From Oscillospiraceae bacterium (GTDB taxonomy: Bacteria > Bacillota > Clostridia > Oscillospirales > Butyricicoccaceae), in assembly GCA_015068285.1 (NCBI GenBank), contig SVKW01000001.1, forward strand, positions 134-64,133: DNA of 64,000 nt, read 5' to 3'. The notes beneath the pieces are model-generated. The model was not told the origin of the DNA and did no database searches. It was given only the letters and a program-made list of their open reading frames with translations. How positions within the stretch are numbered: position 1 is the first letter of the stretch; each line of letters starts with the position of its first letter. Below, piece after piece: positions 225-57,596 of the stretch. The translations under genes and the position numbers were made by a program.

Positions 225-719
225 ATGAACTTGCCAGTGAGAAAGCCTACAAGACTTAAATCATACGACTATTCCACTCCGGGAGCTTATTTTATAACGA
301 TTTGCGCAGCCGGAATGAAGAATTATTTCAGCAGAATAAATGTAGGGGAGGTGCTTGCCCCTCCCGAAAACATTCTTTCGGTTTATGGAAAAATTGTTGA
401 CAGGAATATAAAAGCTCTCCCCCAACGATATTCTCATATAACAGTGGACAAGTATGTTATAATGCCTAACCACATACATCTTATCCTGGTGTTAAAAACG
501 GGAGCAGCAAGCGGCTCCCCTACAATAATTGACGCAGTTCGTGCGTTAAAGTCATTGACTGTGCGTGAATGCAGGGAAAATGGTTTTACAGCCGAAAATC
601 TTTTTCAACGTTCATTCCACGACCATATAATCCGCAGTGAAAATGACTATAGAATGATATGGGAATATATTGATACCAATGTCATACGCTGGGAAAAGGA
701 CTGTTTTTATACTGAATAA
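225..719 (+). CDS. RAYT-like HUH/Y1 (IS200/IS605 TnpA-fold) transposase, apparently stand-alone
   Basis: 164-aa ORF with an HUH motif (VIMPNHIHLILV) and a C-terminal Tyr-containing helix (SENDYRMIWEYIDTNVIRW). No tnpB and no obvious IS ends. It is flanked only by ordinary terminators. Confidence 0.75.
   Translation: MNLPVRKPTRLKSYDYSTPGAYFITICAAGMKNYFSRINVGEVLAPPENILSVYGKIVDRNIKALPQRYSHITVDKYVIMPNHIHLILVLKTGAASGSPTIIDAVRALKSLTVRECRENGFTAENLFQRSFHDHIIRSENDYRMIWEYIDTNVIRWEKDCFYTE
499..524 (+). repeat. REP-like hairpin plus CTACA tail embedded in the RAYT-like CDS
   Basis: cgggagcagcaagcggctcccctaca (codons T92-T100, GAASGSPT) forms a 6-bp stem gggagc/gctccc. It is 26/26 identical to intergenic 49346-49371. 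Confidence 0.85.
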
Positions 720-4458: not shown

Positions 4459-5716
4459 CTCTTTTTCCCCCTATATCCTTTCTATAGAAGCTTTTTTCAA
4501 AGGAAATTTTATCTATATTTTTATATACATGGTCCTGAGCAGACTGTAAATCTTCACCGATATATGTGAGACCGAGCACTCTGCCGCCGTTTGTATAATA
4601 CTTGCCGTCCTTCATTGTTGTGCCGCTGTGGAACACATAGAAGTCTTCGCACTGGCCCTTTTCATCGAGACCTTCAATAAGCTTATTCTTTTCATAGCTG
4701 CCAGGATAGCCGCCCGAAACCATCATAACGCATACGCAGGCGCCATCCTTTGTTTCGATTTCAACATCAGCCAGCTTTTCGTCGATGATAGCGTCCATGA
4801 TTGTGAGCAGATCTGTCTTGAGAAGGGACAGGCAGACCTGAGCTTCAGGGTCGCCGAAACGGCAGTTGTATTCGATGACCTTAGGACCTTCTTCTGTAAT
4901 GATAAGACCGAAGTAAAGCACGCCCTTGAATGTTCTGCCTTCCTTGTTCATGGCTTCCATTGTTGGAATCATGATTTCGCGGACTGCTCTTTCTTCAACT
5001 TCCTTTGTGTAAACAGGGTTTGGAGCGATAACGCCCATACCGCCTGTGTTGAGACCCTTGTCGCCGTCTAAAGCTCTCTTGTGGTCCTTTGCGGAAGTAA
5101 GAGGCTTAATGCACTTGCCGTCTGTGAAAGCGAGGACGGAAACCTCTGTGCCTGTCAGGAACTCTTCGACAACGATTTTGGAGCTGCTTGCGCCAAACAT
5201 ACCGTTATCGATCATTTCATGGATAGCAGACTTTGCTTCTTCAAGGTTTTCAGCGATGATAACGCCCTTGCCGAGAGCAAGACCGGAAGCCTTGATTACG
5301 ACAGGGAACTTGTTCATCTTTTCAACATATTCAATGGCTTTTGCGCTTTCTGTGAAGATTTCGTAAGCGGCTGTAGGAATGCCGTACTTCTTCATAAGAT
5401 CCTTGGCGAAAGCCTTGGAGCCTTCGATGATAGCCGCGTCCTTCTTAGGACCGAAAGCGCGGATACCTGCTTCTTCCATAGCGTCGACCATGCCGAGCAC
5501 CAATGGATCGTCTGGGGAAACTACGCAAAGGTCGATATTTTCCTTCTTGCAGAAATCGACCATGCCTTCTATATCTGTGGCTTTGATCGGCACATTTGTT
5601 GCGAGCGCTCCGATACCGCCGTTGCCAGGAGCGCAGAAGATTTCTCTGCCTTCGCCTGTAAGGCTTTTAATCGTAGCGTGCTCTCTGCCGCCGCCACCTA
5701 CTACCAAAATTTTCAT
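4448..5716 (-). CDS. purD: Phosphoribosylamine-glycine ligase
   Basis: MKILVVGGGGREHA... ATP-grasp GARS. The start was moved to the ATG at 5714-5716, which is preceded by GGAGG. Overlaps the purL start by 11 nt. Confidence 0.95.
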   Translation of the reverse strand: MKILVVGGGGREHATIKSLTGEGREIFCAPGNGGIGALATNVPIKATDIEGMVDFCKKENIDLCVVSPDDPLVLGMVDAMEEAGIRAFGPKKDAAIIEGSKAFAKDLMKKYGIPTAAYEIFTESAKAIEYVEKMNKFPVVIKASGLALGKGVIIAENLEEAKSAIHEMIDNGMFGASSSKIVVEEFLTGTEVSVLAFTDGKCIKPLTSAKDHKRALDGDKGLNTGGMGVIAPNPVYTKEVEERAVREIMIPTMEAMNKEGRTFKGVLYFGLIITEEGPKVIEYNCRFGDPEAQVCLSLLKTDLLTIMDAIIDEKLADVEIETKDGACVCVMMVSGGYPGSYEKNKLIEGLDEKGQCEDFYVFHSGTTMKDGKYYTNGGRVLGLTYIGEDLQSAQDHVYKNIDKISFEKSFYRKDIGGKRDGI

Positions 5717-5745
5717 TATTCCTCCGGAATGAGTGTGTTGTTCTC

Positions 5746-6291
5746 TCATATTTTTCTGATGTTCTGTCTTAAGCTCTGTATCATAAATGTAAATGACAGG
5801 CTGAAAAAGACCTCAAGCAGGCTTGTCACCATACCGATTTCTGTGAAAAACACGGCTGAAAGGGCGATATTCGCCCAGTTCCAGTAAAAATACCTGCGGT
5901 ATTTTGCCCTGTTTCCCTTCCGAAGCCTTATTATAATATGTGTCACGCACAAGTCAGCCATGACTGCCGCCATAAAGCAGCAGGCTGTGTGCAGCCACGC
6001 CATATTGGGCCATTTTTCAGGGAAATAGGGAAGGATTATCCCCGATATCAGCAGGAGTACTGCCGATATCAGGGTGAGTTTTTCAAATACAGTACCGATT
6101 GTGTGTTTTATTATGCTACCCAGGGAAACGCTTATGAAGCCTGCGAAAACCGTTCCCCATACAAGGAACAATTCACGCCGCCCCAATGCGTTGCCCAGCA
6201 CTGTGAAGTTGAGCTCTGTCATGCCGCTGCCCATTACAAAAAACAGAGTAAGGGCGGGAATTATCCCGTAGGCAAAAAGACAGGACAGCAT
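5746..6291 (-). CDS. Hypothetical multi-pass membrane protein embedded in the pur operon
   Basis: 181-aa ORF with several hydrophobic segments, tightly packed between purH and purD. No recognisable family. Confidence 0.55.
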   Translation of the reverse strand: MLSCLFAYGIIPALTLFFVMGSGMTELNFTVLGNALGRRELFLVWGTVFAGFISVSLGSIIKHTIGTVFEKLTLISAVLLLISGIILPYFPEKWPNMAWLHTACCFMAAVMADLCVTHIIIRLRKGNRAKYRRYFYWNWANIALSAVFFTEIGMVTSLLEVFFSLSFTFMIQSLRQNIRKI

Positions 6292-8230: not shown

Positions 8231-8423
8231 GCTGGGGCATTAAGGTGCCTGCGGCGCTATTTAATAAAACGCCCGTCGGGCTACACCTCATCCGTCAGCC
8301 TTACGGCTGCCACCTTCCCAAATGGGGTCCCCGGGCGGCCTGCCGTCTGGGGTATGAATCAAGGGGAAGGCTCTATCCCTCCGCCAATCTTTGATTGACA
8401 CCTCCCCTTACACAGGGGAGGCT
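8231..8423. repeat. REP/BIME-like hairpin mosaic inside the pur operon
   Basis: Modules: cattaaggtgcctgcggcgc, acacctcatcc+gtcagccttacggctg, ccttccc...ggggtccccgggcggcctgccgtctgggg...aggggaagg, and cctcccc-ttacaca-ggggagg. A near-copy of the composite lies at 20901-21046. Confidence 0.85.
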
Positions 8424-17153: not shown

Positions 17154-17221
17154 GGGACGTCGAGGGCGCCGTCCCCTACAAATAGTATTAAAAGTAGGGG
17201 CGGGTTTCCACGCCCGCCCGC
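17154..17221. repeat. Inverted doublet of GTAG-tailed hairpins (REPIN-like)
   Basis: gggacg-tcgagggcgc-cgtccc-CTACA (17154-17180), a 13-nt spacer, then GTAG-gggcggg-tttccac-gcccgccc (17194-17221) in the opposite orientation. Confidence 0.8.
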
Positions 17222-17336: not shown

Positions 17337-17361
17337 GGGACATTCGTAAACGTCCCCTACA
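17337..17361. repeat. GTAG-tailed hairpin
   Basis: gggac-attcgtaaa-cgtccc-CTACA. Confidence 0.75.
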
Positions 17362-20329: not shown

Positions 20330-20380
20330 ACACCTCATCCACCATCTTCGATGGTCCCCCTTCTCCTGCTGGAGAAGGCT
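20330..20380. repeat. Two-hairpin mosaic element (type B)
   Basis: acacctcatcc-accat-cttcg-atggt-cccccttctcc-tgct-ggagaaggct. Confidence 0.85.
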
Positions 20381-20414
20381 AAGACAAAAATATAATTTTA
20401 AGGAGAAATATAAA

Positions 20415-20885
20415 ATGGCAAATCCAATCGTAAAGATGCACATTCAGGATATGGGCGTTATCGAAATCGAGCTTTACCCTGAAATCGCACCTATTTCTGT
20501 TGAAAACTTCCTCAAGCTCTGCAAGAGCGGCTTCTATAACGGCACATTCTTCCACCGTGTTATCCGCAACTTTGTTATTCAGGGCGGCGACCCAACAGGT
20601 ACAGGCATGGGCGGTCCGGGCTGGAATATCAAGGGAGAATTTGCTTCCAACGGCGTAAAGAATGACCTCAAGCACACACGCGGCGTGCTTTCCATGGCTC
20701 GCGCAGGTCATCCTGACTCTGCAGGCAGCCAGTTCTTCATCATGCACGATGATGCTCCGCACCTTGACGGCGATTACGCTGCTTTCGGCAAGGTTACAAG
20801 CGGCATGGATGTTGTAGACTCCATCGTTTCCGCTTACTATGTCGGTATGCGCGGCACTATCGAAAAGGTAGACGTAGAGGAATAA
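20415..20885 (+). CDS. ppiB: Cyclophilin-type peptidyl-prolyl isomerase
   Basis: FHRVIRNFVIQGGDPTGTGMGG... cyclophilin signature. Confidence 0.93.
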   Translation: MANPIVKMHIQDMGVIEIELYPEIAPISVENFLKLCKSGFYNGTFFHRVIRNFVIQGGDPTGTGMGGPGWNIKGEFASNGVKNDLKHTRGVLSMARAGHPDSAGSQFFIMHDDAPHLDGDYAAFGKVTSGMDVVDSIVSAYYVGMRGTIEKVDVEE

Positions 20886-20900
20886 TTTTAATAGTTAATT

Positions 20901-21046
20901 GTCCCTTCGGGACATTAAGGTGCCTGCGGCACTATCTGTTAAACGGTCTGCGACCTACACCTCATCCACCACCAAAGGTGGTCCCCCTTCCCGAATGAGG
21001 TCCCCAACAAGCCTGCTTGCTGGGGTGTGAATCAAGGGGAAGGCTC
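20901..21046. repeat. REP/BIME-like mosaic, near-copy of 8231-8372
   Basis: gtccc-ttcg-gggac, cattaaggtgcctgcggcac, acacctcatcc-accacc-aaa-ggtggt-ccccttccc, and a nested ccccaacaagc-ctg-cttgctgggg closed by aggggaagg. Confidence 0.85.
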
Positions 21047-22706: not shown

Positions 22707-22763
22707 ACAACAACCCCTCCACCATTCTGCCGAATGGTCCCCCTCCCCTTGCACAGGGGAGGC
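22707..22763. repeat. Two-hairpin mosaic element (type B)
   Basis: acaacccctcc-accat-tctgccga-atggt-ccccctcccc-ttgcaca-ggggaggc. Confidence 0.85.
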
Positions 22764-22816
22764 AGGGTAGTTCTTCTCAATATAACATTATAAAATAATA
22801 TAAAGGAGTGTTTAAA

Positions 22817-26765: not shown

Positions 26766-26869
26766 ACAACCCCTCCACCATTCTGCGAATGGTCCCCCTC
26801 CCCGATAATGGGGTCCCCGGCAAGCCTGCTTGTTGGGGTGAAATCACAAGGGAGGCTAAGGGGAGGGCG
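26766..26869. repeat. Type B mosaic with nested hairpin
   Basis: acaacccctcc-accat-tctgcga-atggt-ccccctcccc ... ggggtccccggcaagc-ctgc-ttgttgggg ... gggaggct. Confidence 0.85.
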
Positions 26870-29116: not shown

Positions 29117-29167
29117 GGACTGATGCCCGCATCAGTCCACGGGACGTCGAGGGCGCCGTCCCCTACA
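29117..29167. repeat. Hairpin modules including a GTAG-tailed hairpin
   Basis: ggactgatg-cccg-catcagtcc, then gggacg-tcgagggcgc-cgtccc-CTACA, which is identical to 17154-17180. Confidence 0.85.
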
Positions 29168-33296: not shown

Positions 33297-33524
33297 TATA
33301 GCTCCCTTCGGTCGCAGTTAAATCGCCTTCGGCAATGAAATTACTATCGTAGTGAAATATTCGCCCTGTGAATGCTAAAGTGCCTGCGGCGCATTGAATA
33401 GGCGGAATGTCGAGGGCGCCATTCCCTACAGAATACTTCATCGGTCAGCTTTGCTGACACCTTCCCAAATGTGGTATGAAACCCGCCCTTACAATATAAA
33501 AGCCACTCGATTTGAGTGGCTTTT
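33297..33524. repeat. Array of short hairpins separated by AT-rich 7-8-mers, with a GTAG-tailed hairpin and a terminator-like hairpin
   Basis: Contains gcc-ttcg-ggc, acta-tcg-tagt, gtgcc-tgc-ggcgc, ggaatg-tcgagggcgc-cattcc-CTACA (33404-33430), gtcagc-tttg-ctgac and aaagccactcgatttgagtggctttt. Confidence 0.85.
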
Positions 33525-36880: not shown

Positions 36881-37026
36881 ACAACCCCTCCACCGCTGAC
36901 CGCGGTCCCCCTCCCCGATAATGAGGTCCCCGACAAGCCTGCTTGTTGGGGTGTGAATCACAGGTAGGCTGAATTCTCTCCCTCCGTCATCGCAAAGCGA
37001 TGCCACCTCCCTCGTCAGAGGGAGGC
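36881..37026. repeat. Two adjacent type B mosaics
   Basis: acaacccctcc-accgc-tga-ccgcggt-ccccctcccc ... nested ccccgacaagc-ctgc-ttgttgggg, then ctccctccgtca-tcgc-aaa-gcga-tgccacctccc-tcgtcaga-gggaggc. Confidence 0.85.
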
Positions 37027-38336: not shown

Positions 38337-38398
38337 TACCCCTCCACCATTCTACGAATGGTCCCCCTCCCCTCGCAAGGGGAGGCTGGGGGGTGGGA
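38337..38398. repeat. Type B mosaic element
   Basis: tacccctcc-accat-tctacga-atggt-ccccctcccc-tcgcaa-ggggaggc. Confidence 0.85.
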
Positions 38399-40395: not shown

Positions 40396-40857
40396 AGCCT
40401 TCCCCTCGAGGGGAAGGCTTTATTCGGGCCGTCGGGGACGCCGGTCCCTACACGGCTTCTGCAAACCGATGGAAAGATTCTTCGCATTCGCTCAGAATGA
40501 CAGATAGTTTTAAGCCTCCCCTTGTTAAGGGGAGGTGCTGAACGCAGTGAAGCGGAGGGGTGTAGGGCGTAGCCCGTCTATTTAATCCACAACCCCTCCA
40601 CCATCGTTCCGATGGTCCCCCTCCCCTTGTTAAGGGGAGGCTAAGTGAGATTGGTTGTAGGGGCGAGCATTGCTCGTCCGGAATATTATTTCACAACCCC
40701 TCCGACGGCTAACGCCGCCACCTCCCCTTGCACAGGGGAGGCTAACAGGTTTGCAACCGCACTTTTTCACTATCGACCGGCGAGAGCAAGCCCCCGCCCT
40801 ACAGTGCCACCTCATCCACCATCTACGATGGTCCCCCTTCCCCTCAAGGGGAAGGCT
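40396..40857. repeat. Mosaic of about 0.46 kb made only of hairpin modules
   Basis: In order: ccttcccc-tcga-ggggaagg; gggccg-tcggggacgc-cggtcc-CTACA; gattcttcgcattcgctcagaatgaca; cctcccc-ttgttaa-ggggagg; a type B element; GTAG-gggcgagca-t-tgctcgtcc; a type B variant; ggcgagagcaagcccccgcc-CTACA; a type B element. Confidence 0.9.
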
Positions 40858-40862
40858 TAATT

Positions 40863-47530: not shown

Positions 47531-47952
47531 AGTAAGGCGGAATGTCGAGGGCGCCATTCCCTACAAATAATCCGTGAAACCACTTCGCAGAGGCTGATGC
47601 CCACATCAGCCCGCAGGACGTTGACAAGCACCGTTCCCTGCATGGGATTGTATAAAAGGGAAAGAGATTCTTCACTTCGTTCAGAATGACAGAAAGTTTT
47701 CCTGCCTCCCTCTGACGAGGGAGGGGGACCACGAAGTGGTGGAAGGAGAGAAACCTATCCAATCCGTCGGAGACACCGCACCTCTTCACTTTTACGCGGC
47801 GAGAGCAAGCCCCCGCCCTACAGGACACCTCATCCGTCAGCTTCGCTGACACCTTCCCAAATGGGGTCCCCGACAAGCCTGCTTGTTGGGGTGTGAATCA
47901 AGGGGAAGGCAGAAATAAGATTGTTCGCAGGGGGCGGGCATTGCTCGTCTGC
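47531..47952. repeat. Mosaic of about 0.42 kb made of hairpin modules
   Basis: ggaatg-tcgagggcgc-cattcc-CTACA (47539-47565); ggctgatg-ccca-catcagcc; ggacg-ttgacaagcac-cgttcc-CTGCA; attcttcacttcgttcagaatgaca; the 76-nt unit at 47703-47778; ggcgagagcaagcccccgcc-CTACA; a long type B element; gggcgggcattgctcgtctgc. Confidence 0.9.
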
Positions 47953-49345: not shown

Positions 49346-49652
49346 CGGGAGCAGCAAGCGGCTCCCCTACAGATTTTAATAAATGTGGTATGCCTGAGGT
49401 GAGGATTAAATAAGGATTTACCTCTCCGTCACGCAGCAGCGTGCCACCTCTCCTGAAACAGGAGAGGCAAGTGAGATAGTACTAACCACAGGAGATCCTT
49501 CACTGCGTTCAGGATGACATATAGAGTTGTAGCGGGAGCAGCAAGCGGTCCCCCTACGGATTTTGATAAATGTGGTATGGATTAAATAAGGCGGAATGTC
49601 GAGGACGCCATTCCCTACAAAATCCCCCTTGCCTCCCTCGTCGGAGGGAGGC
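49346..49652. repeat. REP/BIME-like mosaic with an internal direct repeat of about 60 nt
   Basis: gggagc-agcaagcg-gctccc-CTACAgattttaataaatgtggtatg...gattaaataagg (from 49347) is repeated from 49534. Also ttacctctccgtcac-gcagca-gcgtgccacctctcc-tgaaaca-ggagagg, gatccttcactgcgttcaggatgaca, ggaatg-tcgaggacgc-cattcc-CTACA and cctccc-tcgtcgga-gggagg. Confidence 0.9.
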
Positions 49653-51570: not shown

Positions 51571-51737
51571 CCCGGCTTCCTCTGACGAGGGGGCGAATCC
51601 TGTTTAATCTGTCGAGCCCCGCCCTTACATTATATGCGGTACGTCGGCAAGCGCCGTACCCTACAGAGATTGTGCGTATTTTCGGACCGTCGGGGACGCC
51701 GGTCCCTACAACTGTCAACTCTCAATTTTCAACTCAA
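51571..51737. repeat. REP/BIME-like mosaic abutting the tRNA
   Basis: ggtacg-tcggcaagcgc-cgtacc-CTACA (51638-51665), ggaccg-tcggggacgc-cggtcc-CTACA (51684-51710), and aactgtcaactctcaattttcaactcaat. Compare 45516-45552. Confidence 0.88.
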
Positions 51738-51742
51738 TATAT

Positions 51743-51819
51743 GTCTCCGTAGCTCAGCTGGATAGAGCGTCAGACTCCGACTCTGAAGGCCGTGCGTTCG
51801 AATCGCATCGGGGATGCCA
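51743..51819 (+). tRNA. tRNA-Arg (anticodon CCG), CCA encoded
   Basis: Hand-folded cloverleaf. Acceptor gtctccg/cggggat, D arm gctc-agctggata-gagc. Anticodon arm tcaga-ctCCGac-tctga, T arm gtgcg-ttcgaat-cgcat. Ends in discriminator G plus CCA. Confidence 0.88.
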
Positions 51820-51963: not shown

Positions 51964-52070
51964 ACATATTTCAAGGTTCAGTTGGTAGCTTTTTTTCTGC
52001 ATTTTTTATAAAATCAAGTAGTAATCGGACGGGCAAACATCATCTGTCTTTCCGATGAAAGGTCATTCTT

Positions 52071-53321
52071 ATGAATATACATCTTAAAATACAGGAGCTC
52101 CGCAAGAAGGCAGGACTTTCTCAGGAGGGTTTTGCCGAGCGGCTTGGCGTTTCCCGTCAGGCTGTTTCCAAGTGGGAATCGGGCGCAAGCACTCCTGACA
52201 TTGAAAAAATAATCGCCATTTCCAAAATCTTTGAAATCTCTCTTTCCGAGCTTCTGACGGGCGAAAAGGAGGAGGCGCCTCTCTCCGCTGAGGCTCCGGC
52301 AGAAATCGCTGTAAACGATGAAAAATACGAGGAGCTTTTGCAGGACCATCTCCTGCAGATAGATGAGATGCTCAAAAAGGGAAAGAAAAAGCGTCTTATA
52401 TGGGGCATTGCCATTATTCTTGTTGTGGTCATTGTGATTTTCGGATATCTGATCCATCACAACAATGAGCTTCACGCTCTTGAAGCCAACATCAAAACAC
52501 TGCAAAGCGATATGTCCGGCATTGCCAATATACGCACCGACATAAACCACCAGATTTATTCCATCCGTCAGGAAATTTCCGACACCTTAAAGAAGGAATA
52601 CGGCATGGTAAGCGATTTTGACATCGAATACCGCGATATGAGTTTCCCTGACCGCACAGTTGTGCTTGATATTTACGCTTCACCAAGGCTGTGGAATAAC
52701 GGGGACAGAATAAGCTTTATCATCGAATCTGACGGAGAAAGGCTGACTGTCGACGGCATTTATGAAGACGGCACCGCGACGGCAACCGTTACTGTGCCGC
52801 TCACCGACAACATTCAGGTTTCCGCCTGCATTATAAGCGGCGGCACTACCGTGCAGGAAAGGCTTGACGACATTCGCTCGCTTCTCAGCCTTCATCTTTT
52901 AGATGTTGACGGACACGGCTCAATAAGCTCGACTTACACCGAAGGCAGCGACAGTTTTACCCTTGATGGCTCTGTCTCGGTTTTTGTAAGCACCAAGCTT
53001 TACGATGAAAACAAGTCGGCAAAATCCCAGATAAAATCCCTCACTCTTGAGTTTATCGAAAACGGAAAGGCAACTCAGACTGTCGATATGCTTGAGCTTA
53101 AGCCCGACTTCAATGCCGCCGAAATGTGCAATTTCAACTATTCGGTGGATACCATTGAGCGGCCGCTCAAAGCGGGGGACACCTATGAATTTGTTGTCAC
53201 CCTCACCGACCTTAACAATGTGACATACCGCGGTGTGTTGGAGCGCATTGAAATAGGCGATAATCTCACCATCGAGCACGATAAGTCATATTACGGCAGT
53301 TTTGAGGCAATTCTGCCATAA
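52071..53321 (+). CDS. Membrane-tethered XRE-HTH one-component regulator, paralog A
   Basis: N-terminal HTH (LSQEGFAERLGVSRQAVSKWESG), one TM segment (LIWGIAIILVVVIVIFGYLI), then an extracytoplasmic beta-rich domain of about 290 aa with no recognised family. Confidence 0.75.
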   Translation: MNIHLKIQELRKKAGLSQEGFAERLGVSRQAVSKWESGASTPDIEKIIAISKIFEISLSELLTGEKEEAPLSAEAPAEIAVNDEKYEELLQDHLLQIDEMLKKGKKKRLIWGIAIILVVVIVIFGYLIHHNNELHALEANIKTLQSDMSGIANIRTDINHQIYSIRQEISDTLKKEYGMVSDFDIEYRDMSFPDRTVVLDIYASPRLWNNGDRISFIIESDGERLTVDGIYEDGTATATVTVPLTDNIQVSACIISGGTTVQERLDDIRSLLSLHLLDVDGHGSISSTYTEGSDSFTLDGSVSVFVSTKLYDENKSAKSQIKSLTLEFIENGKATQTVDMLELKPDFNAAEMCNFNYSVDTIERPLKAGDTYEFVVTLTDLNNVTYRGVLERIEIGDNLTIEHDKSYYGSFEAILP

Positions 53322-55894: not shown

Positions 55895-56005
55895 ACAAAA
55901 ATCGAGCGGAAGTTGGTGGTATTTTCGCCGATTTTTCACTAAAATCGAATCATAATAAATAAGGTTGTGCACACCTCACCATGTCCCAAGGAGGTAACTT
56001 TATCT

Positions 56006-57268
56006 ATGAATATTCATCTTAAAATACAGGAGCTTCGCAAGAATGCAGGGCTTTCTCAGGAGGCTCTTGCCGAGCAGCTTGGCGTTTCCCGTCAGGCGGT
56101 TTCCAAATGGGAGTCGGGCATAAATATTCCCGACATCGACAAGATTATCGCCATTTCAAAAATCTTCGGCGTTTCCCTTTCCGAGCTCCTTACAGGCGAA
56201 AAGGAGAATGTTTCGGTTGCCGCTGAAACTCCTGTCCCCGACGAAAAATATGAGGAGCTTTTGCAGCAGCATCTTATGCAGGTCGATGCCATGCTCAAAG
56301 AATCGGGCAGAAAAAAGCGCTCAGGCTGGAGCATTGCTTTCCGAATTATTGCGGCGGTCGTCATCTGCTATCTGGTGCTTTTCTATGTCGATAAGCTTCA
56401 GCGTATGGAAAACAATATAAATAATCTCCAGAGCAATGTGGGCAACATCCGCACCGACATAAATCATCAGATTTATTCGATTCAGAAGGAGATTTCCGAA
56501 AGCTTAAAGAAGGAATACGGTCTTATCAGCGACTACACTCTCGATTACCGCGATATGGATTTCCCTCGCCGCACGGTTGTGCTCGATATTTCGGCTTCGC
56601 CGAGACTCTGGAATGAGGGCGACAGCATGGCTTTTATTGTTGAGGCCGACGGCGAGCAGCTTTCCTGCGAGGGAGTTTACAACAACGGCACGGTTTATGC
56701 CGAGATTGAGGTACCTCTCTCGGACAATATTCAGGTTTCGGCGCTTATCACCAACGGCGGCACTGTCAAGCAGGAGAAAATCGACGAGCTTCATGAGCTT
56801 CTCAGTATGCATCTACTTGAAGTGAACGGTCACGGCTCGATTCGCTCGTCACGCGTACTTGGTGATGACCAGCTGACTATGTCGGGCGATATTACTGTTT
56901 ATGCTCACAGTAGGCTTTATGACGAAAGTCAGCCTGTTTTGTCGCGCATAAAGTCGGCAACTTTTGAGCTTATCGAAAACGGCAAGACAACTCAGACTGT
57001 CGATTTGCTGGCGGAAAGTATGAAAAACCGCCCTTATGACAGTCCTATCGACAATGTCCGTGCCGATTTTGATTATACTGTAGGCACTATCGAGCGCACC
57101 ATGAAGGCGGGTGACACTTTTGATTATGTCGTGACGATTGTCGACAACAACGATGTCACTTATAAGGGTATTCTCGAAAGCATTATGGTGACAGACGACC
57201 TCTCTGTCGAGCACAACAAGCGCGACTACGGCGACTTTGAAGTAACTCTGCCTGATAAGGTTGAGTAA
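56006..57268 (+). CDS. Membrane-tethered XRE-HTH one-component regulator, paralog B
   Basis: Same architecture as 52071-53321. The first 67 residues are 57/67 identical by hand alignment. ATG at 56006. Confidence 0.75.
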   Translation: MNIHLKIQELRKNAGLSQEALAEQLGVSRQAVSKWESGINIPDIDKIIAISKIFGVSLSELLTGEKENVSVAAETPVPDEKYEELLQQHLMQVDAMLKESGRKKRSGWSIAFRIIAAVVICYLVLFYVDKLQRMENNINNLQSNVGNIRTDINHQIYSIQKEISESLKKEYGLISDYTLDYRDMDFPRRTVVLDISASPRLWNEGDSMAFIVEADGEQLSCEGVYNNGTVYAEIEVPLSDNIQVSALITNGGTVKQEKIDELHELLSMHLLEVNGHGSIRSSRVLGDDQLTMSGDITVYAHSRLYDESQPVLSRIKSATFELIENGKTTQTVDLLAESMKNRPYDSPIDNVRADFDYTVGTIERTMKAGDTFDYVVTIVDNNDVTYKGILESIMVTDDLSVEHNKRDYGDFEVTLPDKVE

Positions 57269-57321: not shown

Positions 57322-57596
57322 GGGAGGGCATACCCAAGGGTACTAGCTTCGCGTCGCGAGACCCTCCCCTACGGATATTGACCACGAAAGAGCAGTTGTA
57401 GGGGCGGTTGCTTTCCGCTCCTGTGAAATATCCCCCCTGTCCTGCGGACATCCCCCCTTTAGGCAAGGGGGGCTATTAAAGAGGTGTCTCCGACGGATTA
57501 AATGGGAGTCACTCCCTCAGTCAGCCTTACGGCTGCCAGCTCCCTCGTCTGAGGGAGCCAAGCGTCTTGTACGTAGGGGCGAGCATTGCTCGTCTG
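57322..57596. repeat. REP/BIME-like mosaic
   Basis: gggaggg...ccctccc-CTACG; GTAG-gggcgg-ttgctttc-cgctcc (57398-57422); cccccc-tttaggca-agggggg. Then ggtgtctccgacggattaaatggg plus ctccctcagtcagcc-ttac-ggctgccagctccc-tcgtctga-gggagc, and GTAG-gggcgagca-t-tgctcgtc (57573-57596). Confidence 0.88.

Follow-up and report, generated by a model that had tools for sequence, protein, structure and literature searches.

An inverted pair of putative REP elements within the coding sequence of a RAYT gene family of Clostridia

REP-associated tyrosine transposases (RAYTs, also termed TnpAREP) have been defined as being flanked by inverted copies of repetitive extragenic palindromes (REPs; PMC2817692). In the 64,000-nucleotide (nt) stretch of an Oscillospiraceae genome analyzed here (contig SVKW01000001.1, hereafter "the window"), a RAYT-like gene at 225-719 has no REP on either flank, and an inverted REP pair lies instead within its open reading frame (ORF), at 341-366 and 499-524. 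An initial annotation, made from the sequence of the window alone, had noticed the second of these elements and proposed that the gene contains a copy of its own putative substrate. That proposal stands insofar as the element is a genuine GTAG-type REP that is also found outside genes, whereas the inverted copy at 341-366 had been overlooked. The origin of REP families, their persistence and their continued match to a RAYT are open issues, which the arrangement described here makes testable: an enzyme and its presumed substrate share 500 base pairs (bp), in which the same nucleotides serve as codons and as recognition hairpins.

Two REPs within the Reading Frame

The gene (225-719, plus strand; ATG at 225 and TAA at 717-719 in the ORF list) is a RAYT/TnpAREP-like Y1 HUH gene encoding 164 amino acids (aa). 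Its HUH codons (H83-I-H85, in PNHIHLIL) occupy 471-479 of the plus strand according to the translation and to an alignment with the HUH motif of TnpAREP, in which the two histidines are H59 and H61 (PMC3479197). The codon of the putative catalytic tyrosine (Y148, in WEYIDTN) lies at 666-668 of the same strand, as judged from alignment with Y115 of the Escherichia coli TnpAREP structure 4ER8.

The 3′ intragenic REP at 499-524 is the 26-mer CGGGAGCAGCAAGCGGCTCCCCTACA and encodes GAASGSPT. As the initial annotation had noted, it consists of a hairpin with a 6-bp stem plus CTACA; the stem is GGGAGC/GCTCCC and the loop has 8 nt. The REP orientation is that of the minus strand, which reads TGTAG plus hairpin. 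The 5′ intragenic REP, TGTAGGGGAGGTGCTTGCCCCTCCCG, lies at 341-366 on the plus strand, where TGTAG precedes a hairpin with a GGGAGG/CCTCCC stem and the codons read VGEVLAPP. It is identical to the reverse complement of 499-524 at 22 of 26 positions, one compensatory stem change included, and a repeat-finding tool extends the inverted arms to 335-366 and 499-530 (32 nt, 81% complementary, 132 nt apart). The HUH codons lie between the two copies, and the interior of the REP-bounded cassette (367-498, plus strand) encodes helix 53-68 together with the strands that carry the HUH motif.

In the AlphaFold model of the protein, residues 40-47, encoded by the 5′ REP, form the tip of a β-hairpin, and residues 91-100, encoded by the 3′ REP, form the loop that connects the HUH strand to helix 101-118; both are low-confidence loops. 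The helix that follows the 3′ REP loop corresponds to the DNA-binding helix α3 of TnpAREP (PMC3479197; PMC8266576). We considered GAASGSPT as a lineage-specific insertion and rejected it, as the segment aligns free of gaps in 42 homologues and the protein does not exceed E. coli RayT in length.

The hairpin of 499-524 is weak by itself (-5.6 kcal/mol, z = -2.4). The minimum-free-energy fold of 330-535 is a long-range stem that joins the 5′ REP to the 3′ REP, predicted for RNA (-66.9 kcal/mol, z = -5.6) and likewise for single-stranded DNA (z = -5.4). At its gathering threshold, Rfam places no RNA family on the hairpins and recognizes only a tRNA in the window. We also note an intrinsic-terminator-like site at 500-519 of the minus strand, where GTTTTTAACA comes after the 3′ internal REP.

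An Inverted Pair across the Family

Eighty homologue loci, most of them from metagenome-assembled genomes and with flanks of up to 10 kb, were fetched from Clostridia, with the isolates Fumia xinanensis NSJ-33, Gemmiger formicilis and Christensenella intestinihominis among them; five were left out because the motif filter could not parse them, and 82 genes from the other 75 loci and the window were analyzed. A gene was scored as carrying the pair when the HUH codons were preceded at 110-150 nt by a YGTAGG-hairpin and followed at 25-50 nt by a hairpin-CCTACR. Both internal REPs were found in 73 of the 82 genes, the 5′ GTAGG-hairpin in 75 and the 3′ hairpin-CCTAC in 78, and the genes that keep both copies have protein identities as low as 38%. 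The 5′ copy has the same position, orientation and frame in 74 of 75 genes. The internal hairpins themselves fall into about ten unrelated sequence types, and the 5′ copy agrees with the reverse complement of its own 3′ copy at 17.8 of 20 variable nucleotides, compared with 8.8 of 20 for the copies of other genes. Since loop lengths differ between REP types, covariation was assessed by fixed-register counts in Python: the two copies are 89% complementary by Watson-Crick pairing, compared with 45% (maximum 53%) for shuffled partners, and at least three pair types (three or four) occur at 19 of 28 positions. Kinship among the loci inflates such simple counts, and the sturdier evidence lies in the roughly ten REP types and in the use of two reading frames.

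These frames are seen at the two feet of the pair. In 74 of 75 genes GTAGG encodes V-G; CCTAC encodes P-T (60 genes) or P-L-Q/R/H (18 genes), with loop peptides that are otherwise unrelated between REP types. As GTAG and CTAC are invariant even though CTAC is read in two frames, conservation acts at the level of DNA. What is conserved is therefore a DNA element, namely a GTAG-type REP present twice in inverted orientation, and we regard the inverted pair, which most of the sampled homologues have, as an ancestral and conserved trait of a large Clostridia clade.

The initial annotation had contrasted conservation of the GAASGSPT segment as protein with conservation as a DNA hairpin only, and the answer depends on the depth of the alignment. 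Close homologues conserve the 3′ segment as protein, with the consensus AGASPCPT and with A95, P99 and T100 invariant, while the wider family retains only the hairpin and CCTAC, in two frames. The peptide kept in the closest clade speaks for a coincidence, in which the protein needs the loops for its function, the hairpins arose by accident and the 26-mer seen between genes elsewhere in the window is a decayed gene fragment. We give this explanation hardly any credence. It is contradicted by the frame and covariation data, for the family peptides are unrelated while the hairpin with CCTAC persists in both frames, and it fares no better with the extragenic copies described below.

Covariation also bears on a regulatory explanation. 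A long-range stem of 23-28 bp in the mRNA or in single-stranded DNA could sequester the HUH-coding core, lowering translation or triggering cleavage and so keeping RAYT low; transcripts of extragenic REPs could in addition base-pair with the message and serve as a sensor of copy number. Self-limited expression is common among transposases. The predicted fold of 330-535 is just such a stem, and the covariation supports pairing between the copies. However, the same covariation is expected if one protein recognizes both copies, and pairing by itself does not call for palindromic arms, an invariant GTAG or identity to REPs outside genes. We consider autoregulation improbable as the reason for the pair, and it could coexist with the role as enzyme substrate that we favor below.

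Some loci show further arrangements of the family. Two or three RAYT paralogues lie within a few kb of each other in L054 (4082-8966), L039, L056, L008 and L041, and such neighbors differ in the type of their internal REPs, except in L041, where two copies are identical in the internal REPs and in the post-HUH region. The gene of L065 (9892-10561) is chimeric, with a 5′ REP of the GGGCGATTCACGAATCGCCC type and a 3′ REP of the GGGACGGCGTCCTCGACGTCCC type; what precedes its 5′ REP does not resemble the usual N-terminus, and the REP appears to be the breakpoint of a rearrangement. L029 (9865-10700) has an intermediate layout, in which the 3′ internal REP is present, the 5′ internal REP is absent, and two tandem GTAGG-hairpins of the same type directly follow the stop codon.

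The Enzyme Gene and Its Setting

That ORF 225-719 is RAYT-like, as the initial annotation had proposed from its HUH motif and C-terminal tyrosine, is borne out by several comparisons, some of which remain below family cutoffs. The Pfam family Y1_Tnp (PF01797) scores 20.6 bits, below the gathering score of 23, and a precomputed PF01797 match is present in most relatives; NCBIfam NF047646 (REP_Tyr_transpos) scores 62.3 bits, under its cutoff of 80. The sole sequence match among solved structures is E. coli TnpAREP (PDB 4ER8, E = 0.004), in which the catalytic Y115 aligns with Y148 and N119 with N152. HUH and Y148 are invariant across alignment A1 of 42 homologues; the residue after N152 is V in the window protein and P in many relatives. 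The idea that the catalytic tyrosine is missing (SFHDH for SYYDH) proved wrong, the catalytic tyrosine being Y148 in the last helix. The AlphaFold model, for which the 42 homologues served as input, has a predicted local distance difference test score (pLDDT) of 82.6, and its best Foldseek match is again 4ER8 (E = 6.5e-7, TM-score 0.56), followed by the TnpA proteins of ISDra2 and IS608. At E ≤ 1e-5 the window protein has 6410 homologues.

A single RAYT copy is present in the 64 kb of the window, which holds no tnpB, and neither flank of the gene carries the end of an insertion sequence (IS) or a REP. The flanks contain terminator-like hairpins only: that of the upstream gene at 184-207 of the plus strand, recognized by eye and left unscored by the terminator scan, and a perfect 13-bp palindrome at 722-751, between the RAYT gene and a convergent purL. 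The upstream neighbor is a glyoxalase-like gene. An orthologue with 79% identity has the same AhpC-glyoxalase/RAYT/purL context, and another with 76% identity has the same upstream gene as the window. Because the gene is single-copy, lacks tnpB and keeps its synteny, we take it to be a domesticated and vertically inherited RAYT rather than an insertion sequence, in agreement with the domesticated layout recognized in the initial annotation; for the same reasons a mobile IS200-like element, one of many identical copies with IS200-type ends, can be rejected. In L075 (153-4396), a RAYT that is 38% identical to the window protein and has another REP type is also convergent with purL.

Extragenic Copies in the Window and Elsewhere

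The extragenic REP at 49346-49371 (minus strand, family D11) is identical to 499-524 at all 26 positions, as had been reported. A close variant had been placed at 49534-49559; it exists, with three mismatches to CGGGAGCAGCAAGCGGCTCCCCTACA, one position away at 49533-49558. This variant belongs to a "double-foot" REP at 49529-49558 (minus strand), in which GTAG (49529-49532) and CTAC (49554-49557) flank the palindrome. By chance, no match to the 26-mer is expected (0 in 100 shuffles).

The element is by no means confined to the window. A metagenome scan with the window 25-mer, GGGAGCAGCAAGCGGCTCCCCTAC(A/G), returned identical copies in 17 contigs (L081-L097), mostly from other organisms, and as their G+C contents range from 41 to 69% these organisms must be very different. 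In none of the 17 contigs did tblastn with the window protein find a RAYT homologue. The same 25-mer is present in the flank of the orthologue L103, and both L103 and L104 carry near-copies of their own internal REP in their flanks. A decayed gene fragment was thus rejected as the source of the intergenic 26-mer, since similarity stops exactly at the ends of the 26-27-mer and no RAYT is detected at the metagenome sites, which counts further against a coincidence. Several of the high-GC copies have a common upstream context, TTGAAGTTGNCGCC.

Alongside its one RAYT gene, the window contains at least seven further GTAGG-hairpin REP types. They lie at 17154-17179(-), 17194-17219(+), 17337-17360(-), 29141-29166(-), 33404-33429(-), 40423-40452, 40657-40676(+), 47539-47564(-), 49593-49618(-), 51638-51664(-), 51684-51709(-) and 57573-57592(+); one example is CGGGACGTCGAGGGCGCCGTCCCCTACA, of family D4 with eight copies. 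Several of these types are identical to REPs found inside RAYT genes of other genomes (L017/L034/L038, L010/L028/L076, L050, L068 and L051), which suggests that paralogous RAYTs are present elsewhere in this genome.

Among the 1.16 Mb of loci, 135 extragenic GTAGG-hairpins with a stem of at least 6 bp were collected, and a match was counted at up to three mismatches in 24 nt. Of the 135, 78 match a REP inside one or another RAYT of the set. Matches to the RAYT of the same locus number 26, against 5.2 expected from random gene pairing, and none of 20,000 simulations reached 26. RAYT ORFs contain 2.97 REPs per kb, compared with 0.116 per kb in the sequence around them, and some relatives have flanking REPs too. 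Each gene therewith reports its own REP, so that RAYT-REP pairing and co-evolution may be read from sequence, the scale being about ten REP types, each co-varying with its genes, in 76 sources of sequence, namely 75 loci and the window.

Other repeats of the window accompany the REPs. The intergenic palindromic families D3, D5, D6, D9, D12, D14 and D17, for example CACCTCCCCTTRCACAGGGGAGGCT and the 66-nt unit GGTCCCCGACAAGCCTGCTTGTTGGGGTG, lack GTAG (8306-8423, 20331-21044, 22714-22764, 26769-26857, 36904-36970, 38338-38382, 40398-40862 and 47844-47910) and often cluster with REPs in arrays that resemble bacterial interspersed mosaic elements (BIMEs). The tRNA gene at 51743-51816 (Rfam, 61.5 bits) lies directly downstream of the two REPs at 51638-51709. 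Direct repeats of 71-82% identity, about 3.9 kb apart (52070-53092 and 56005-57009; D1, D2, D10 and D16), look like diverged tandem paralogous genes.

Copy and Loss of the REP-to-REP Cassette

Just downstream of the gene in L061 lies an extragenic copy of the cassette, which runs exactly from GTAGGG to CCCCTACA. Over 208 aligned nt it is 85% identical, and a 24-nt deletion removes the IMPNHIHM codons and with them HUH. In L028 a gene fragment ends at CCCTAC. L039 contains an intact ORF of 106 aa (5606-5926) without the whole HUH core, and a search with this short ORF returned ten HUH-less protein clusters of 103-121 aa (P0122, P0135, P0136, P0139, P0142, P0151, P0166, P0170, P0179 and P0214). 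In all ten and in the L039 ORF exactly the cassette is absent, while the N-terminus, the helix that follows the 3′ REP and the Tyr helix are retained. The junction peptide can be seen in several short forms, for example VGALHEAP|LR, and where the DNA of HUH-less ORFs was read (L105, 1555-1914; L106, 2448-2807) the junction is a single GTAG-palindrome-CTAC element. Loop orientation at this junction differs between L105 and L106, and so the crossover points differ.

The short forms are polyphyletic. The nearest relative of each is a full-length protein, with 68-95% identity over the C-terminal 62 aa and with at least 90% in four cases, which argues for recurrent losses rather than for one old family. 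On these alignments we count at least ten independent losses of a segment that behaves as a discrete cassette, copied once and deleted many times. Two inverted palindromes also form a direct repeat, so that recombination or slippage between the arms can remove the HUH core, and we infer that the deletions arose in this way. Such a deletion would leave the frame intact in genes of the P-L-Q/R frame types alone; the direct repeats of the window gene lie at a distance of 154 nt, so that its frame would be shifted. The layout is in this sense inherently fragile, and the catalytic core is recurrently lost. Several annotation artefacts find an explanation here as well, as peptides such as VGDGVLDVP and RAIRESPLQ are translated REPs and "transposase" fragments of 103-121 aa are deletion products. 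A 518-kb Monoglobus replicon was considered as a test case and set aside, its match being a distant transposase fragment of 121 aa (366 nt) in a restriction-modification context.

A bolder proposal treats the catalytic core itself, in this RAYT clade, as a REP doublet forming hairpins (REPIN), a REP-bounded cassette that can be copied out or deleted by the enzyme or by recombination between the palindromic arms. We think this unlikely. If it were true, the gene would seed its own repeat family, and a horizontally transferred RAYT could found matching REPs in a new host. Coding constraint would anchor the REPs, which would explain an identical 25-mer in contigs of 41-69% G+C, and loss of the HUH core would be a built-in off-switch, possibly leaving functional HUH-less derivatives that bind REPs.

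Possible Roles of the Internal REPs

The explanation to which we incline, with some reserve, is that the internal REPs are real substrates of the enzyme, join the turnover of the extragenic REPs and serve as coding-protected master copies that keep enzyme and repeats matched. GTAG and the hairpin are both required for binding and cleavage by TnpAREP (PMC3479197), and cleavage of single-stranded REP DNA and strand transfer that depend on GTAG are known only for the enzymes of E. coli, S. maltophilia and Marinomonas (PMC3479197; PMC8266576). By analogy with the E. coli enzyme, the protein would bind GTAG and hairpin on single-stranded DNA and would treat the internal REPs as substrates, which would then share cleavage, strand transfer and conversion with the extragenic copies. 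Selection on the codons would shield the internal REPs from decay and thereby make them master copies; these would keep the enzyme and its repeat family matched, and the gene could seed REPs. Loss of the HUH core through recombination between the arms would be a by-product of the geometry. The extragenic REPs of own type, the cassette copy and the cassette deletions lend indirect support to such seeding or turnover, and the flow may run either from gene to REP or from REP to gene.

Several observations weigh against a substrate role. An extragenic REP of own type is found within 10 kb of only 23 of the 82 genes, and the window has two such copies in 64 kb next to at least seven other GTAGG-REP types without a cognate RAYT there. 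The local hairpins are thermodynamically weak. As each strand has one REP-oriented copy, simple excision of the cassette from one strand in the manner of IS608 is not expected. Two intact genes (L043 and L057) lack both internal REPs and seven more lack one, so that the REPs are dispensable for the protein. In the text of Quentin et al., such intragenic REPs are regarded as peripheral in-frame insertions with little functional impact (PMC6006769).

In another view the REPs are passive hitch-hikers, inserted in frame into two permissive surface loops of an ancestral RAYT, as has been proposed for subclass 2.4, and kept similar to the abundant extragenic pool by occasional conversion, without any role for gene or repeats; loss of the cassette would then be collateral damage. 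In-frame REPs have been documented in tnpAREP and in other genes and are thought to be tolerated in loops (PMC6006769; PMC3733652). Both segments of the window protein are low-confidence loops in the model, L043 and L057 are intact genes without REPs, and the HUH-less derivatives show that the arrangement is costly. On the other side, the 5′ copy is fixed in 74 of 75 genes and both copies persist in 73 of 82 genes with protein identities down to 38%, there is no net lengthening of the protein (63 aa from HuH to Tyr, compared with a median of 88 in TnpAREP subclass 2.4), and the two copies match each other far above chance, the asymmetric loop included. Conversion of 25-nt tracts, moreover, would most plausibly need RAYT to act on the internal copies anyway. 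We hold this view to be possible, if rather doubtful, and retain the role as substrate and master copy as our preferred explanation.

Comparison with Known Systems

REPs inside tnpAREP genes have been known since 2018, when Quentin, Siguier, Chandler and Fichant reported in-frame REPs within the genes of subclass 2.4, equivalent to RAYT Group 4 (PMC6006769); the advance made here is the conserved paired architecture and its consequences. According to the text of that report, the insertions lie mostly between HuH and Tyr, in the β3/αC loop, and "double-foot" REPs can be explained by deletion within an inverted dimer. This subclass is the closest to the window RAYT, whose motifs fit it loosely: the published signature is NH[IFV]H, WQ and YIxNNP, the window protein has NHIH, FQ and YIDTNV, and many relatives have WQ and YIxNNP. 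With subclass 2.4 as described there, the genes share GTAG-type REPs with G-C-rich stem bases, a REP copy in the β3/αC loop that leaves the frame intact, and double-foot GTAG...CTAC REPs. They differ from that description in the fixed inverted pair, which occupies two loops, one of them upstream of HuH, and brackets the HUH core; in the distance from H85 to Y148, which at 63 aa falls within the 58-67 aa of the insertion-free subclasses; in the lack of flanking REPs around the window gene; and in the host clade, Clostridia (Oscillospiraceae, Acutalibacteraceae and others). In the text of PMC6006769, its Figure S10 aside, we found no account of covariation, own-type matching, a cassette copy or recurrent loss of a HUH cassette. 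A fixed HUH-bracketing pair without lengthening, near-universal in a Clostridia clade, was likewise not found described in the literature searched, nor were REPs inside ORFs under the name "RAYT", the prior report using "tnpAREP subclass 2.4."

The E. coli REPtron (RayT/TnpAREP of subclass 2.2, with flanking BIMEs) has in common with the window gene a Y1 HUH fold, 4ER8 being the best structural match, as well as a single-copy, housekeeping-like gene and a GTAG at the foot of the hairpin. In contrast, neither GTAG nor CTAC occurs in the E. coli rayT ORF; the REPs of E. coli, which lie on the flanks of the gene, are long palindromes with bulges, and the window protein is without the C-terminal regulatory tail. 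Leptolinea and Fulvitalea, which hold more distant relatives of the window protein, have flanking REPs only.

The REPIN-RAYT systems of Pseudomonas and others (Bertels and Rainey, 2011, 2017) likewise consist of two inverted REPs that form a long hairpin when single-stranded, with a single-copy, vertically inherited RAYT that co-evolves with its repeats. REPINs are extragenic and have short spacers, whereas here essential RAYT coding sequence, 132 nt in length, takes the place of the "spacer" and both arms are translated. For the present unit, which is intragenic, a long-range stem is predicted, and the extragenic copy in L061 is the single example of a copy of the whole unit.

Insertion sequences of the IS200/IS605 family (IS608, ISDra2) have the Y1 HUH fold as well, and recognition of hairpins in single-stranded DNA and a conserved tetranucleotide beside the hairpin would be further common features. 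Unlike them, the RAYT described here is not multi-copy, has no tnpB and no subterminal flanking hairpins, shows Y---N rather than Y---Q, and carries its hairpins within the ORF and on opposite strands. Finally, intragenic REPs and Rickettsia palindromic elements (Di Nocera et al., 2013; PMC3733652) are also palindromes translated in frame in loops. Those cases are sporadic and occur in unrelated genes, whereas here the host is the presumed cognate enzyme itself and the palindromes stand at fixed positions across the sampled homologues.

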